NCBI GenBank assembly: GCA_051294905.1
Contig: CM119371.1
Coordinates: 9,922,001 to 9,986,000 of the forward strand
DNA length: 64,000 nucleotides
DNA from: Botryllus schlosseri
Taxonomy: Eukaryota
Reading direction: 5' to 3'
In this document: positions 3,701 through 49,345 of the stretch, in pieces
Layout of the letters: the number at the start of each line of letters is the position of its first letter
Position numbering within the stretch: the first letter of the stretch is position 1
Notes under the pieces: generated by a model
Told to the model about the DNA's origin: nothing
Seen by the model: the letters and a program-made list of their open reading frames with translations, nothing else
Databases searched by the model: none
Position numbers and translations under genes: made by a program

Positions 3701-6700
3701 GGGAAATGGTCATTGCGAATGGTATGCGGTATGCTAACTGGTTTTCTAATTTGTCTTGGTCTAGTTGGTAGCTATAAGCTAAGGATCAAAAGGCCGGGGA
3801 TATCCTAAAATAATTCAGATATGAATTTGCTGACTTTGCATATGAATGTTTCTGACAAAATTCACCAAGTACGTCAAATATTTTCATGCCCTCGACGTGA
3901 GTTTGTGTACTCGAATTGGTTTTCTTAGCATTGGTGATTTTGAAACCTACCAACCCGTCCAAATTTTCAAAATCACCTTCTTATATGCTCATCGTAGCTA
4001 ATCGTGTTTCTTACCAACGTGGGATAGGACCTGCATGTGCTAATTTCGTTGTTTGTAATCATATATTCAATTCAAGTCCGCCGGTATTGCGTTCGTTTTC
4101 ACGCACCTTTTCCCGAAATTATCGTCACCCCTCGCTTGTAAAGCTTCGGCATTCTGATGGATCTCGTTCTCCCGTCCCACGCGGAATCGCGACGTATTGG
4201 GAAGTTGCTTCGGGAAAAGTATAATCGGCACTGAAATCACGATAACGCAAACGCCGCCAATGAGGAATCCGAGCCACCAATTGCCGATCCAAAATGCTGA
4301 GCTCTCGTCGATATCGATTCTGTTAGCGATAGCGAAAAAAAAAGTTTCAGCTCAGTTCATTACTAATGATACCCTCGGACCATCACATCAAAAGATCGCG
4401 ATACAATGAATGATAGGATGTCGACGCAAATGATTTGATATATTCCAGATCATGCTTGTGCGTAGGTACGTATTGGAAGGTATGAAAGTAGGCACGTAGG
4501 GTTAATGACCGCGTTATAATTCTGAGTTAAAGATTGTTTCCGAGTACCACTAAGGTTGCATTTGAAACAAATATTTTTTCAAAACACTTTGGTTGAAACA
4601 TGTTTTGAACAGTGTTGTAAACAAATGCCTTTCAACATAATTGTGATTTTTTTTCAGTTGTAAAATTATATGCCAAAATAGTGTAAATAATTTTCAAAAA
4701 CATGTTGTATTAGCTTTCGGACAATTACCACCAGGTATAGCCGACGCATATCGATATGGGTTGGCTGGAACCCTCAAAATATTCGGTTCAACAGCTGTAG
4801 TACAGATATTTCGGCAAAGGAGCAATATTTACCCTATATTTTCAATTGTCAATGTCAGTCAACTATGACGTCACAATTGAATGTTTGCGACGGCACGGCT
4901 TAAAATAAAAGAAGATATGAAAATCATGTTTTAAACAAGGGCCTCGATTTTAAAGGTGTTTGTTTTAAATTGATTCTTGTTTTAAATGCAACCCTATGTA
5001 CCACCCTTTATGGCGCTTTGGGTGTGAATACATAGTTTTTCATCCTCTTTTAGTTTTGAAATTGGTTATCAGTTCACTGATTGAATTTGCGGTAAGAAGC
5101 CCCCATACCACGGTAACTGAATACATTTTCGAAGTTAGCACTTATTTATGGTGTGATAAGTCATTCTGTGTTACTTGCTAAGACTTATCTTGTATTTTCG
5201 AGTGTATAGCCACCTGCAATGGACCGCCAAAATCATTTGCACGTCGACCAAATATACTTTTTCACCACTCAATTGAGTATTTTTTCAGGTCTTACCTTTG
5301 TACTTCTACTCCAAGTAGTTGAGATATGTTTCGCAAGTCACTAGAAATTGATGTATTTGACTCGTTTGCAAGCAGTGCAATGTGTATGAAAGCACAGTGA
5401 CGCACCGTATAGTGAAGTTTACTGAATTAGCTTCATGCGCTATTGTGTAAATCGGTAATATACAAGATTTGGATTTGCAGTGTTCACATGGTGTAGAGAT
5501 AGAAGTACTCTGGAACATAACCACGTTAATAAGTATCGCCCGAAGACAAAACCTGATTGACTATCTTGAAGTGACCCTCTTGAAATGTAAGTGTTGCATA
5601 TAGTGTTGCATTTAAAACAAATGGTGTTTTAAAACACACGGATGATTTGCACCCAGTATAGTCCACGTATACGATATGGAGAGGCTGGAACCCTCGAAAT
5701 CGTCGTCGGTTAACAGTTATGGCAAGTAAATATAGATCATTGGCACGGAATAGGTGTTTTGATGATCATGACCACCGACCATAAGAATTCCGCATAACGA
5801 TAGTCCTTGTTAAATATGTTTTTGGTCTGTTTATGCCAGTGATCGGAAGCCCTTTTCGTCATAGGAGCCATATTTACCTTATTTTTTTCAATTTTTAATG
5901 CCAATACACTGTGGCGACACAATCATCGATTCGTGATGTCAGGGCGAAAAATAAATAAAAACATGTTTTAAACAATGTTTTAAATTGATGTTTGTTTTAA
6001 ATGCAACCCATAGTTGCATATTTTCGGCACGGGAACTTGGAATATTCAACTATAACGTCGACACCCTTCGAAATCCCGTTCTTCCTTTTATTTATATAAT
6101 CGGCAGTACTTACTCTTCTCCCAAGTTCGTGTATAAGCGGATAAAGGCACCGCCTGCGATGAATCCGATTCCAGGACCAGCTACGGAAAATGCGAAATAA
6201 ATCCCTGCGAAAAAAGGACACGGCGTCGACTTTAACAGATACTTTGTAAAATTAAATTGGATCGAAATCATATCAGCTAAGTTAACTATCTGTTACCGGA
6301 GACAAGCTGAATGCCACTGGGATAGCGACATGGTAAATCGAGAGGACCGAATTCGACTAGGTAGGTCATTTAGTCACGACGTTGGTTCACTGTGCGAGCA
6401 TTTAATGGTGCGGTATTTCACAATGTATATAGGCTTTATGAGTTTAAATAGCTGGTTCGTGGTACAGAACTTGAATATAGCTTTCAATACAATATCCATT
6501 GTAGAATAATATTTATTAACTCGAAGACTTTTCGGGTGCCTCTTTTCAAGAGTTATCGGCACACTAAAGGGATTTAAACAGATTTAAAAGCAAAACCAAA
6601 AAGGCAAAGTATGACGCAATAATCAAAATCACAAACCATGAAATTCGCATTGTACCAATGGCAACAATAACAAACTATGAAGTAAGTGCCGATAACTCTT

Positions 6701-9700
6701 GAAAAGAGGCACCCGAAAAGTCTTCGAGTTAATAAATATTATTCTACAATGGATATTGTATTGAAACCTTTATGAGTTGGCAGCACATTTTCAGAGTGTT
6801 GACGTATGTTCTCCAAAATATAGAACTCATTCTTCTAGCAAAGTGGATTTAACTTTTTCCTACTAAACGTGATTCTGCTGTCATTCAGCATCACATTTGG
6901 TTCACATTGAGTCGGCGGCTTTAACTCTGGTGCGGAATTAAGCTTAAACGCCAATATCCGTAGCTGTCAGTGAGTAAAATAAAATACAACCTTATGACTA
7001 TCGCATTATTTCGTGGTGAATTATAATTAGGTATGTAAGCACAGGCGCATATCATCTTATGTATGAGTGTAATAGTCTCACCTGATTTCATCAAGTGCGG
7101 AATGGAGTAATCTACTTACCGTGGTACAATGGGGTCTCGTTTTTCTTGACGTTTGCATCTAGATACGTGATCACCAATGTGAAGAGTCCGCAAGCACCGA
7201 TTCCATGCAATATATGCCCGACGATGAAGAAAGCCCTGTGATATTAAACGAAAAATCAGCACTGACATACGACCGACCTTCAACATCGACAAGTTGGGGA
7301 TCGGACTGCAGTTGAAAGAAAGCTGCCGGTTTGTTCAAAGGTGAGATTAGTGTTCTCTTGAGATGAGATCTTCCTGAACACGTGTTTAAGTAAGTTAGAT
7401 GTTGAAAAACCTGTTTTACAAGCTAATACACTTCAAGTGCATAAACGAATGGACCGTATCGGAATGCTTAGGATGGTTAATCAAGTGGAAAGCATCTAAC
7501 ATGAAGTTTATGTCTGTAAAAAATGATATATTGCTTAAAGCTCACCGATAAACTTTAAGATACTCTTTCCCACATTGCGCAAGCGACATGTCGTCGGAAC
7601 ATATATAGGAGTCTGTCTCTGGGATTTTATACGTGGGCGCGACGAAATGCGGGAGCGAAAACGTGATGGATCCCAGCCCCATGATGAAAACGCCCCAGCC
7701 GATCCACTGCGGCTTATGGCCTCTGCCGCCGACGTAGGTTACGAAAAAGACGACTATCAGAAAACCCAAATCGTAGCATCCCGCGATGAATCCCGTTTCT
7801 GAGCTTTGTAGATGAAACCTATAAGGGAATACCGGATCTATTACTCAATAATCAGAATTTATGATTAATCATATTCATTCGACTTTTTCGGAGTACTGAA
7901 GTCAGTCTTTCCTATGCTTACACAACACCGTAAGCCCGCAGGTGAAAATAGGTATATTTAGTAGATTCCCACCATAACGCGAAGTGTCAATCAGGCTCTG
8001 TCTGGTACTAAAATCTGCTTATACACCTTTCCAGAGCGTGGAAACGAGTTAAATAAACCAATCCTGGTTGAGATATATCCCTGGAGTGTATAGTCGGCTA
8101 TGTTCACGTGTATTGTCTTTATGGGATTTATCTCGTGAGTATTGGAGTATCTGACTTCTTTTGAACTGTAGAAAAGGTGTGAAAGTATAACAGGGCAGCT
8201 TAAATTACTGCTCACTTGATTTATATCCCAAGCTAGGGTGACAATCGTTGTTGCTGTTGTTGTTGTTGAATAAGTTTAATATTGGTCCGCGACTTCAAAT
8301 GGTCTTTTGCACCAGATCTATGACGAGAGTATTATATATAGTTTTATGTCTTTATAGCTCTCGACCAGTTAGTAGGGCATATTCTATCAGAGTACCCATG
8401 GCGAGAGGATTGACCTGTAATGTTTCCAAGCGGAAAGGAACGGCGTCTCCTATTCGGTGACAATCGTCGAAACACACGATTGTCATTACAGTGCGTGCAC
8501 ATATGCTCAAGTGGTTATGTTTTTAAACTACTTCCACTTTTACTTGAACAGTTTCGGGGCAAACTACTACTTGGTGTTTAAAATTTGGATTTTTAAGAGT
8601 GAAAAGTAGTTTCGAGAAAAATTTACATCTCTTTTAAAAATTATAGAAACGTGCGTAATAGCCCGTCATTCACGTTACATGAATATAAACGTTCAAACAG
8701 TAAGCGTGCATGCAGCGTAATTTGCGATTTAACGGTAGTCGCGAAGATAGCGTTGTGCTACGTTCCACAGCTGCAAAACCAATGGATTACTAGTTATAGG
8801 GCGGTCCATAATTTATATGCAACCGGTTGAGGTTTATCTCGGCTCTTCCTCGCCATGATATCCGCGTAAGCGGTGTGTTACAATAATCCTAAAACAGGGG
8901 CGGTCAACCCATGGCCCGCGAGAAGGTTTTGTGTGTCACGCGAGGTAATTCTCGAAATTAGTTATGACATTAGGTAAAATTGCAAGGCCAACCAAAATTT
9001 GATTAGCCTGACCGCGAAATTTGATGATGACTAAAACATCCGTTTCGGCGCATTGGCGTAACCAGGGGCCAGCCACATTTACCTCGGATCTTGGTATATA
9101 TCGCCACGAGGCAGAATATTTCGTTGAAGATTTATTTGGCGTGAATTTTTTCTTAACACTTCGCATGATGTATTGTCACTCGATTTCATGCATTTAGTAT
9201 TGGAGCCCCCTCCTGAACATTATAAATACGCGTAATTTACTGAATTGAGTCCAACTATATTCGCAATTAATGGATAACGTGTCGTCCAACATGCGACTTC
9301 GCTGGTGCGCTCGCAGCGACATCGCAGGCGATGAAACATTTGCACAAAATGACAGAGGCATGTTTCCCGAAACCTTCGATATTGCTATGTCTAAACGCCG
9401 ACTATTCCTGTCCTTGCCAAATGAGCTCTATTTATCGAATTCATTCAATACCTTTGAGAAGATTTCGCGCTGCGCGCGACCAGGACATGAATGCGAACTG
9501 CACAGTTACACACAGAGTTTTCATGACATGACTGTTACCAATTTTCAAGTGTGGTAATATAAGTCTTGTTTTCAACGTTACCTAATTCGGTTCGCTCCTA
9601 ACTGACGACTAGAATTAGGTCATCAATATTCCAGGGACACGCGCAATGGTTCGTGAATCTCATGTGGCCCTTAGGCCGAGAAGGTTGGCCACCCCTGGCC

Positions 9701-48654: not shown

Positions 48655-49345
48655 TACAAGGCCAACCAAATATTTGATTCACCTGACCGCGAAATTTGGT
48701 ATGATTATGATAATAATAAAATATCCGTTCCGTCGCATTGGCTAGCCAGGGACCAGCCGCATTTTTCATAGATCTTCGTATAATATTAGGCGGTATGTTT
48801 ATTTCACTTGTAATTTTTCTTCGCGCTTCGCGTGCTTTATTGTCACGGATTTTCTTGATTTTGAAATTGATTTCCCTACCGTAAATTAAAAATACGCCTC
48901 ATTTACAGAATTGAATCAAACTATATTGAGGGAAAACGTGTCTTCCAACTTGCGAATTCACGTGTGCGCACGCAGAACTATTGCCGGCGATGACACTTTG
49001 GCGAAAATGATAAATGCATGTTGGCCGAAAACTTCGGTATTGACATTTCCAGGCGCAGAATAGTCCTGTCCTTGCAAACCGAGCTCAACGATACACAGCG
49101 GCGACCAGCAATATATGCAAATAACAATATTATTGACCGTACTTCACGTGGCAAAGGTATAACTGCACAGTTGCACAATGAAATGTCATGTTGTCCATTT
49201 TGATGCTTAGTGAGATAAAAAATGTTTTCGCCGTTACCTAATCCGGCTTGATCCTATAGATAGGGCGTATAAAAAGATCATCAACAGTCAAGTGACCCTC
49301 ACAATGGTTCGTAAATTGCATGTGGAGTGTGGACCTTTGGCCGAA
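48655..49345 (+). mobile_element. Degenerate family D body without intact TIRs
   Basis: CAAGGCCAACCAAA, CTGACCGCGAAATTTG, TCCTGTCCTTGC, CAATGGTTCGT blocks shared with 8895-9697. Confidence 0.7.

Follow-up and report, generated by a model that had tools for sequence, protein, structure and literature searches.

The closest described systems are Penelope-like elements (PLEs) and the hammerhead ribozymes that they carry. Canonical endonuclease-bearing PLEs of the Penelope/Poseidon, Neptune and Nematis type have a single ORF, in which the reverse transcriptase (RT) is followed by a C-terminal GIY-YIG-type motif, and lie in tandem arrays that form pseudo-LTRs (pLTRs). Their copies show strong 5' truncation, variable target duplications and a hammerhead near the ORF start; the portions of PMC8557442 at hand also describe an adjacent inverted 5'-truncated copy and a tail of 30-40 bp at one end, a tail that is reported in PMC11167929 as well. 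The latter study reported two-strand cleavage and extension by the anole PLE protein in vitro, and two internal RT start sites. The minimal hammerheads of PLE pLTRs have U3-A8 cores and occur as opposite-strand pairs 100-700 bp apart (PMC4209133). Loop 2 forms a Watson-Crick pseudoknot of up to 6 bp with the stem I side in about 40% of hammerheads, all three types being represented, and this pseudoknot is required for fast cleavage, according to the available part of Perreault et al. 2011 (PMC3088659). Finally, the hammerhead of the anole element PAc is protein-assisted and dispensable for in vitro insertion, and RNA-seq ends are absent at its cut (Frangieh et al. 2024, PMC11167929).

The window, that is, the whole stretch of 64,000 nucleotides of Botryllus schlosseri DNA that was analysed, contains an insertion (Table 1) that differs in no respect of kind from the canonical endonuclease-bearing PLEs, the copy in the window having no ORF beyond its first 18 codons. 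Judged from its sequence, the insertion consists of two pieces placed head-to-head, namely the 240 nt from the 3' end of a high-copy PLE, lying on the minus strand, and an 81-nt inverted copy. We propose that it is very probably the product of a recent dead-on-arrival retrotransposition of an endonuclease-bearing PLE into an intron of a minus-strand OATP/SLCO gene, and that each copy carries the hammerhead of the family. A single unmatched base (6685) separates the two PLE copies and another (6767) separates the right arm from the exact 11-nt direct repeat. On the right side the 37 bp next to the left direct repeat are without any partner; they are the known PLE tail. In the 88-nt repeat the outermost 7 nt represent microhomology between element and target site and contain no element sequence. 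Each arm comprises the end of the 3'UTR, the hammerhead, a 23-nt leader with AAUAAA and the beginning of the ORF, of which the plus arm holds six codons and the minus copy 18.

Table 1. Positions in the window of the parts of the insertion and of the neighbouring host exons.
Feature	Position	Strand	Basis or remark
Target-site duplication, left copy, 11 bp	6434-6444		Identical to 6768-6778; abuts the fixed 3' end common to the copies
Target-site duplication, right copy	6768-6778		Repeat search
Inverted arms, 88 nt	6475-6562 / 6686-6773		98% identity, separation 123 nt; repeat search
Perfect part of the inverted repeat, 81 nt	6482-6562 / 6686-6766
5'-truncated PLE copy, last 240 nt of the element	6445-6684	-	98-100% identity over 1-240 to 29 other loci continuing into the ORF; holds part of the 3'UTR, the hammerhead, the leader and the 18 initial codons, tail included
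37-bp tail, corresponding to ORF codons 7-18 of the next unit	6445-6481	-	Minus copy only; runs on into the ORF in tandem arrays
Element ORF start codon, minus copy	6497-6499	-	N-terminus conserved among families A, B and C
AAUAAA between predicted cut and start codon	6512-6517	-	Sequence; sense to the host gene
Type-I hammerhead motif, U3-A8 core	6517-6555	-	Predicted cut between 6523 and 6522
Pseudoknot 5' strand, predicted	6558-6562	-	Pairs with loop 2 at 6536-6540; covariation in 4/6 pairs across families
Candidate CRE-like box, 3'UTR/pLTR	6612-6619	-	By eye; conserved in all PLE families examined
Second copy, inverted, tail-less, 5'-truncated, 81 nt	6686-6766	+	Repeat and motif searches
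Pseudoknot strand, second copy	6686-6690	+
Hammerhead motif, second copy	6693-6731	+	C17 = 6725
AAUAAA, second copy	6731-6736	+
ATG, second copy	6749-6751	+
Upstream host exon (open frame containing it)	7112-7243	-	Pfam PF03137 positions 135-172, 35.1 bits, E 6.3e-9
Downstream host exon (open frame containing it)	6110-6292	-	PF03137 positions 163-200, weak: 23.5 bits, below the 25.8 cut-off, E 2.1e-5
Stronger OATP exons	7542-7844, 4067-4351	-	Pfam PF03137

A first look at the genome gave 1747 candidate copies, and all 40 that were scored were 89-100% identical. At 30 loci that we followed, the 3' end is fixed and the truncation point at the 5' end is variable: the end corresponding to 6445 is common to all 29 other loci, and the sequence extends the opposite way for 240 to more than 1740 nt. 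These loci were chosen with a query that holds the tail, so that the presence of a tail on the main copy at all 30 follows from the selection. An inverted partner is present in 10 of the 30 and absent in the other 20, and flanking direct repeats, found in 13, vary from 7 to 13 bp. In all nine simple pairs the partner is tail-less and falls 18-42 nt short at its 3' end. One longer copy (L031) continues into ORFs that carry RT motifs and a GIY-YIG-like motif, the ORF stop lying about 70 nt past the truncation point of the 240-nt copy of the window. The RT was matched by RVT_1 (36.7 bits, cut-off 29.6) in an 846-aa ORF of sister family B; the RT motifs of the window's own family (P0002) were read by eye, and its ORF fragments taken alone had no Pfam match. 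For the endonuclease, PF01541 matched all four homologues tested (26-28.6 bits, cut-off 22.6; identity 54-55% over 99% of P0001) in the region aligned to the motif of P0001, the corresponding fragment of the window's family, for which Pfam, NCBIfam and PDB sequences gave no direct GIY-YIG match. Several loci of this family (L077-L080) have the 3'UTR and hammerhead directly upstream of the ORF start, and the N-terminus of the ORF is kept at the protein level among families A, B and C, the changes being synonymous and conservative. Tandem arrays are many in the other families of the genome; those of family C have a 2825-bp unit with 856-aa open frames. About eight related PLE families are present in the genome, and in many of them intact ORFs occur in tandem arrays.

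An earlier note, made from the sequence of the window, had described a perfect 81-bp inverted repeat with a 123-bp spacer, 37 bp on one side only and an 11-bp direct repeat, and the repeat search recovered every one of these. It had read the locus as a recent PLE insertion without ORF in the form of a partial inverted pLTR. The linkage to PLEs, the fixed end and the variable truncation bear out this reading for the most part; the arms, which do contain the 3'UTR end and the hammerhead, are not pLTR alone and also include the leader and the first 6 or 18 codons of the ORF. The note expected genomic copies next to RT and GIY-YIG ORFs, and the longer copies do run into such an ORF. It would have given up the PLE reading for symmetric terminal inverted repeat (TIR) copies with target duplications of fixed length and no PLE linkage; the single fixed end and the repeats of 7-13 bp contradict that picture.

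The hammerhead predicted for the family is of type I. Its core is U3-A8 and its helix I has 6 bp; stem II is vestigial, with a loop that enters a pseudoknot, and helix III is a near-palindrome that would lend itself to dimer formation. The 39-nt motif occurs exactly twice in the window, where none is expected from 100 shuffles, and is followed by AATAAA in both arms, as the earlier note had it. Its core (C3/U4/G5/A6/N7/G8/A9, G12/A13/A14, A15.1-U16.1 and H17) is complete in both, U3 and A8 replacing C3 and G8. We must consider that such a block is merely hammerhead-like and has been kept for protein binding, RT control, 3'-end formation through AAUAAA, translation start or as a promoter, which we regard as rather unlikely. 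In favour of this possibility, the Rfam hammerhead models, by which the earlier note would have checked the motif, gave no match in 6200-7000 at E values up to 10 and none at gathering score in the whole window. In addition, two related motifs have C at the normally invariant position 4, and the monomer hammerhead fold is unfavourable (+5.9 kcal/mol, as against an MFE of -5.7). Against it stands the pattern of conservation: the core is kept in all families, and variation is confined to N7, the sole free core position, which may be A, U, G or C. Position 3 varies in step with position 8: of the 20 rows in the alignment, 11 have U-A, nine have C-G and none is mixed, which a C3-G8 tertiary pair explains and a plain binding site does not. 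A covariance model (R1) built from families D-G only, the window's family being left out, matches both arms, at 6514-6564 on the minus strand (34.1 bits, E 3.1e-7) and at 6683-6734 on the plus strand (35.4 bits, E 1.3e-7), the next match within the 64 kb reaching only E 0.05.

The covariation test covered 20 distinct rows out of 63 matches from about eight PLE families, and as these families are related, the independent events behind it are few; paired cells amounted to 95.6%, against 78.8% in shuffles, and both sides change in 10 of 16 pairs. In helix I, 91% of cells are paired and four of the five counted pairs have changes on both sides. Stem II is reduced to local pairing of G10.1-C11.1 (G-C in 18 of 20 rows) and one more pair across a mismatch; in the window it is only G-C, mismatch, G-C. 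Covariation is strongest in the pseudoknot that joins loop 2 to the 5' flank (four of six pairs compensatory, 98.3% of cells paired), in an alignment (A4) that was fitted to the pseudoknot and in which the rows of the window's family are gapped there. That the best-covarying helix is a pseudoknot, in itself silent on catalysis, and that stem II is vestigial could both be cited for a role other than cleavage. Helix III is a perfect 6-nt palindrome in four families (D-G), which again argues for a ribozyme. In the window's family it is a 7-nt near-palindrome with a central U.U, and its self-duplex is computed at -1.5 kcal/mol, versus -4.3 for the AAGCUU type of the sister families. The predicted hammerhead is thus supported by covariation at three places, namely U3-A8 versus C3-G8, helix I and the pseudoknot, and the comparison of families indicates that the pseudoknot is what stands in for the nearly absent stem II. 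The earlier note had seen a minimal type-I hammerhead with U3 and A8, and the conserved and covarying core agrees with this; it missed the vestigial stem II and the pseudoknot, and the stem III that it called palindromic, although suited to a dimer, is only near-palindromic here. The non-conserved core that the note named as fatal to its view is contradicted among the sister families.

This hammerhead resembles the min-HHRs of PMC4209133 in its type-I topology, short helix I, minimal palindromic helix III, G10.1-C11.1 pair, U3-A8 core and opposite-strand pairing of copies. However, the published local helix II has 6-8 bp, whereas here about 2 bp are accompanied by 5-6 bp of pairing between loop and 5' flank, and the extra central U in helix III of the window's family leaves a U.U mismatch in the dimer. 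In the available part of PMC3088659, loop 2 likewise pairs with sequence beside stem I, but the cases published there retain a proper stem II. In PAc the hammerhead overlaps the ORF start in the pLTR, with the start codon inside the ribozyme and the cut 26 nt downstream, whereas here the predicted cut is 23 nt upstream of the start codon.

The fate of element transcripts bears on the same question. On tandem transcripts of the element we would expect the ribozyme to cleave 23 nt before the start codon, and then probably only when it dimerises or is assisted by the protein of the element. Reads of four RNA runs (three of them single-cell libraries; low depth, about 4-55, on the L078 reference) cross the predicted cut with no pile-up of ends reported, and four bulk RNA reads on L078 carry poly(A) 15 nt past the AAUAAA hexamer. 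These data would also suit a block kept for a role other than cleavage, as would the anole PLE, in which hammerhead mutants leave in vitro insertion unaffected and no RNA-seq ends appear at the cut (PMC11167929). We speculate that stem II was cut down to one or two pairs, its role being taken over by a pseudoknot of 5-6 bp, that one fold, with the cut site, AAUAAA and start codon packed within 25 nt, decides for a tandem transcript between cleavage to a short-leader mRNA, polyadenylation and a read-through template, and that the intronic 81-bp duplex could feed small-RNA silencing of a still-active family; taken together this scenario is improbable.

How did the head-to-head arrangement arise? 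We suggest, from the anatomy and the published in vitro work, that the element endonuclease made cuts 11 bp apart in the two strands of an AT-rich target, and that both 3' ends primed reverse transcription of the element RNA. The first cDNA would have begun at the distal start site, hence its 37-nt tail, and come to an end 240 nt on (minus strand, from 6684 to 6445); the second would have begun at the proximal start site, helped by target microhomology, and stopped after 81 nt. Head-to-head joining of the two cDNAs would give the inverted repeat. A single priming event, after which the RT switched from the RNA to its own nascent cDNA and snapped back, would equally yield inverted copies joined at their 5' ends, and the one unmatched base at their junction suits such a switch; nevertheless, we consider it a clearly improbable origin. 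The right arm stops at the tail-less start site, with microhomology to the target at 6 of 7 positions, and is followed by the duplicated target, an arrangement that counts against snap-back because it is what independent priming on the other strand predicts. Moreover, the partner ends at the proximal site in nine of nine simple pairs, and the anole protein processes both strands in vitro. Finally, the unit can hardly be a fold-back or MITE-type TIR DNA transposon or a non-autonomous hammerhead retrozyme instead of a truncated autonomous PLE: its inverted-repeat shape, flanking direct repeat and lack of an ORF would suit either, and animal retrozymes are thought to derive from PLE pLTRs (bioRxiv 10.64898/2026.07.22.740005, in the part available), but the repeat stops short of the left end with 37 bp unpaired, two thirds of the loci lack the partner, copies vary in length from one fixed end with flanking repeats of varying length, the unit is collinear with the 3' end of copies that carry the ORF, and the hammerhead motifs lie on opposite strands with no tandem direct repeat of the unit in the window.

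Two-strand priming of a PLE thus being the preferred origin, we turn to the host gene. The insertion is flanked on either side by matching minus-strand exons of the OATP/SLCO gene, so that the minus copy is sense to the pre-mRNA of this gene, as had been claimed. In the host pre-mRNA the arms are predicted to form an 81-bp duplex of -164 kcal/mol (z -18.7), in line with the earlier suggestion that the antisense arm could pair as dsRNA. The host transcript, with one sense motif and its perfect complement, would accordingly fold into this duplex, and we expect no function at the insertion locus. Much of this is already in print (the hammerheads of PLE pLTRs, the U3-A8 core, inverted 5'-truncated partners and the one-sided tail), and there is little new biology. 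For annotation, the analysis accounts for a perfect inverted repeat of 81 bp in an intron, together with its ribozyme motif, as debris of a transposon. The hammerheads of the roughly eight families differ by compensatory changes, including C3-G8 versus U3-A8, and therefore form a natural mutant series for dimer-dependent or protein-assisted cleavage. As for the gene itself, the nearest matched downstream exon, the one with the weak OATP match, is now preceded at about 210 nt (6233-6444) by a sense AAUAAA and a long duplex.

We conclude that the unit at 6434-6778 of the window was left by a young tail-end insertion, lacking an ORF, from a Penelope-like element (PLE) family that looks active. 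Such insertions are ordinary for PLEs, and the kind has already been described. The architecture given in the earlier note, an inverted repeat with its spacer, 37 bp present on one side only and an 11-bp flanking repeat, was recovered in full by a repeat search of the window. The inverted arms are separated by 123 nt and match perfectly over 81 nt (6482-6562 and 6686-6766), no counterpart exists on the other side for the 37 bp at 6445-6481, and the exact direct repeat flanks the whole unit. Moreover, a 39-nt motif taken from that note occurs exactly twice in the window, once per strand, with no occurrence expected from shuffles.

Features at and around the PLE unit in the window
Feature	Position	Strand	Details
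Inverted-repeat arms	6475-6562 / 6686-6773	inverted	88 nt at 98%
Direct repeat	6434-6444 / 6768-6778		11 nt, exact
Minus copy	6445-6684	-	part of 3'UTR, hammerhead, 23-nt leader with AAUAAA, 18 codons
Plus arm	6686-6766	+	hammerhead, leader, 6 codons
OATP (PF03137) frame	7542-7844	-	profile 30-106, 91 bits
OATP (PF03137) frame	7112-7243	-	profile 135-172, 35 bits
OATP (PF03137) frame	6110-6292	-	profile 163-200, 23.5 bits (weak)
OATP (PF03137) frame	4067-4351	-	profile 197-262, 52 bits

The family to which the unit belongs is large. A search of the genome (495 Mb, 219 contigs) returned 1747 first-look candidates; identity is 89-100% in all 40 scored. The end at window position 6445 is common to all 29 other loci fetched, and the extension in the opposite direction ranges from 240 to more than 1740 nt. 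A fixed 3' end together with variable 5' truncation is the pattern of a retroelement, and the sense of the element is therefore that of the window's minus strand. One genomic copy, L031, runs on into two open frames in which RT motifs and a GIY-YIG-like motif were recognized by eye, a combination typical of PLEs. Direct domain searches were empty: the two ORF fragments of L031 had no Pfam match, and P0001, the fragment with the GIY-YIG-like motif, had none among NCBIfam and PDB sequences. Domain evidence was therefore sought in homologues and in one full-length ORF of a sister family. The intact ORF of a sister family (846 aa, 87% identical) matches RVT_1 at 36.7 bits, and Pfam GIY-YIG scores above its cut-off in all four P0001 homologues tested (54-55% identical over 99% of the length of P0001), on the stretch aligned with the motif. 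An Atlas look-up by features led to eukaryotic RT proteins with HTH_animal and RVT_1, one RT cluster having GIY-YIG in 27% of its members. The assignment to PLEs proposed from the sequence is thus borne out by ORF-linked copies with RT and a GIY-YIG-type motif and by the common 3' end.

Related PLE families are numerous in this genome, with tandem arrays and intact ORFs of 850-880 aa; two extra PLE regions that we examined belong to families D and F. On many contigs the families form tandem and head-to-head arrays with unbroken frames of 850-880 aa, which suggests that several PLE lineages may be recently or still active at once. Eight or more long copies from the window's family (among L036-L056, e.g. 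L055:1340-4427) share one identical junction, at which a sense copy of about 2376 nt meets an inverted copy of 655 nt or more (715 nt as measured in L055); it seems that the composite was multiplied as a unit, or that these loci are segmental duplicates. In three loci (L058, L066 and L069) the PLE 3'UTR is broken by another repeat, followed in L058 and L066 by CCTAA-type (TTAGG-like) short repeats.

How these elements insert can be read from 30 loci. An inverted partial copy adjoins the 5' end in 10 of them, and direct repeats of 7-13 bp flank 13. In all nine simple pairs the inverted partner ends 18-42 nt before the full 3' end; the loci were picked with a tail-containing query, so that the tail of the main copy is selected but its absence from the partner is not. 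Among five head-to-head pairs found through their ORFs, four (L055, L056, L073, L074) combine one tailed and one tail-less end, L071 being the exception. In the window, the right arm stops at the end point of tail-less copies, where element and target are identical at 6 of 7 bases. An inverted 5'-truncated copy alongside the insertion, and a tail of 30-40 bp that is often at one end only, are described for PLEs (PMC8557442). The tail corresponds to the sequence lying between two internal sites at which reverse transcription starts; in vitro, a PLE protein cleaves and extends both target strands (PMC11167929). Insertions of the window's family have the same anatomy as the marks published in these two sources.

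Comparison of tandem arrays and full-length copies places the predicted hammerhead cut 23 nt upstream of the start of the element ORF. At the protein level, the N-terminus of this ORF is conserved across three families, the codon changes being synonymous and conservative. Consequently, both arms include the first codons of the ORF, and the tail is codons 7-18 of the ORF of the next unit.

The earlier note had read a hammerhead ribozyme in each arm. Here the outcome is divided: the motif is supported by a covariance model and by covariation between families, but not by a match to an Rfam hammerhead family. Rfam gave no hammerhead in the whole window at gathering score and no hammerhead family in 6200-7000 at E up to 10. 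RF00163 run across the genome, with 73 of about 70,000 first-look candidates scored, gave one match (E 0.99), an uninformative result. The monomer hammerhead fold is unfavourable, at +5.9 versus an MFE of -5.7 kcal/mol. By comparison of the regions upstream of the start codon in 40 PLE copies, the motif lies at the same position in 37, in about eight sequence types if family B (L074) and a stray fragment (L075:3225-3275), both from other loci, are counted. Core positions are kept across families, and all four bases occur at the free position N7. Families A, B, C, C' and D have U at position 3 with A at position 8, families E, F and G have C with G, and there is no mixed case; helix I varies between families through compensatory changes. 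Families D-G have a perfectly palindromic helix III centre, whereas that of A-C is nearly palindromic, with one or two central U; the self-duplex of helix III is weak in the window's family (-1.5 kcal/mol). Stem II consists of G10.1-C11.1 and one further pair only, and loop 2 is complementary, in four sequence versions, to the 5-6 nt directly upstream of helix I.

In the model-fitted alignment A4, whose 63 matches give 20 distinct rows, the paired share of cells is 95.6%, versus 78.8% after shuffling and 26-42% in slid controls. Both sides change in 10 of 16 pairs, a count reached by none of 500 shuffles; the families are related, so that these changes represent few independent events, and A4 was fitted to the pseudoknot. 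Rows from the window's family are gapped at this pseudoknot, its outermost pair there being really a U.C mismatch. Families D-G alone have 95.6% of cells paired versus 87.1%, with eight pairs changing on both sides. R1, a covariance model built from D-G without the window's family, picked out precisely the two arms when run on the 64-kb window, scoring them at 35.4 and 34.1 bits (E 1.3e-7 and 3.1e-7, respectively). Its next-best match (48981-49043, E 0.05) was rejected on inspection, as it has no core box.

One alternative, in which the upstream pairing strand is the 3' strand of helix II, was dropped because GAA never follows that strand in any family. The pseudoknot and the G10.1-C11.1 pair might be sterically incompatible, though kissing complexes do contain fully paired loops. 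Hammerheads with a pseudoknot between stems I and II are already known (PMC3088659). PLE pLTRs are also known to carry U3-A8 cores and minimal dimeric hammerheads (PMC4209133). The form of the hammerhead, with its vestigial stem II and covarying pseudoknot, appears to be the only point of the case that is mildly unusual. Two hammerhead types (L083:109-176 (-)/L084 and L075:3225-3275 (+)) have C instead of the normally invariant U at core position 4; one of these types sits in copies with open frames of 875-876 aa.

RNA reads of several loci break at 321-324 of L078, the family reference, just 5' of the pseudoknot strand. Three of the nine inverted partners (L001, L007, L015) end 112-121 nt from the 3' end, like the plus arm of the window. 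Reverse transcription may preferentially halt at the border of the ribozyme fold.

As for the host gene, minus-strand OATP frames lie on either side of the unit and no OATP match overlaps 6434-6778, which places the insertion in an intron of roughly 880 nt, an estimate based on the OATP matches. The OATP gene being on the minus strand, the minus copy is sense to it; the flanking matches thus agree with the SLCO-intron location and orientation proposed initially. The host-sense RNA of 6434-6790 is predicted to fold into a long hairpin (-164 kcal/mol, z -18.7), which would bury the sense hammerhead motif within its complement, in keeping with the earlier suggestion that the antisense arm could sequester it. 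A dimeric hammerhead is impossible from one sense and one antisense copy, and therefore no self-cleavage of the host transcript would be expected at this unit.

Transcription was followed with four RNA runs carrying the same species label, one bulk and three single-cell, aligned to L078, which covers the 3'UTR, the hammerhead and the ORF start. This region is transcribed, and in the single-cell runs most of the signal is in the element-sense direction. Reads span the predicted cut site, and no pile-up of molecule starts or ends was reported in the four runs, at low depth for a many-copy family; neither cleavage nor non-cleavage follows from these data, which concern the family rather than the window's own copy. 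A search of sequencing runs with the 240-nt stretch listed no RNA run as containing it. Poly(A) begins 15 nt beyond AAUAAA in four bulk reads on L078.

A CRE-like box lies at 6612-6619 of the window (sense on the minus strand) and about 95-110 nt upstream of the hammerhead core in L077-L116. Its core is CGTCA, often as the full palindrome TGACGTCA, and it is present in the 3'UTR/pLTR of every PLE family examined, within sequence that diverges between families. This box may be part of the pLTR promoter.
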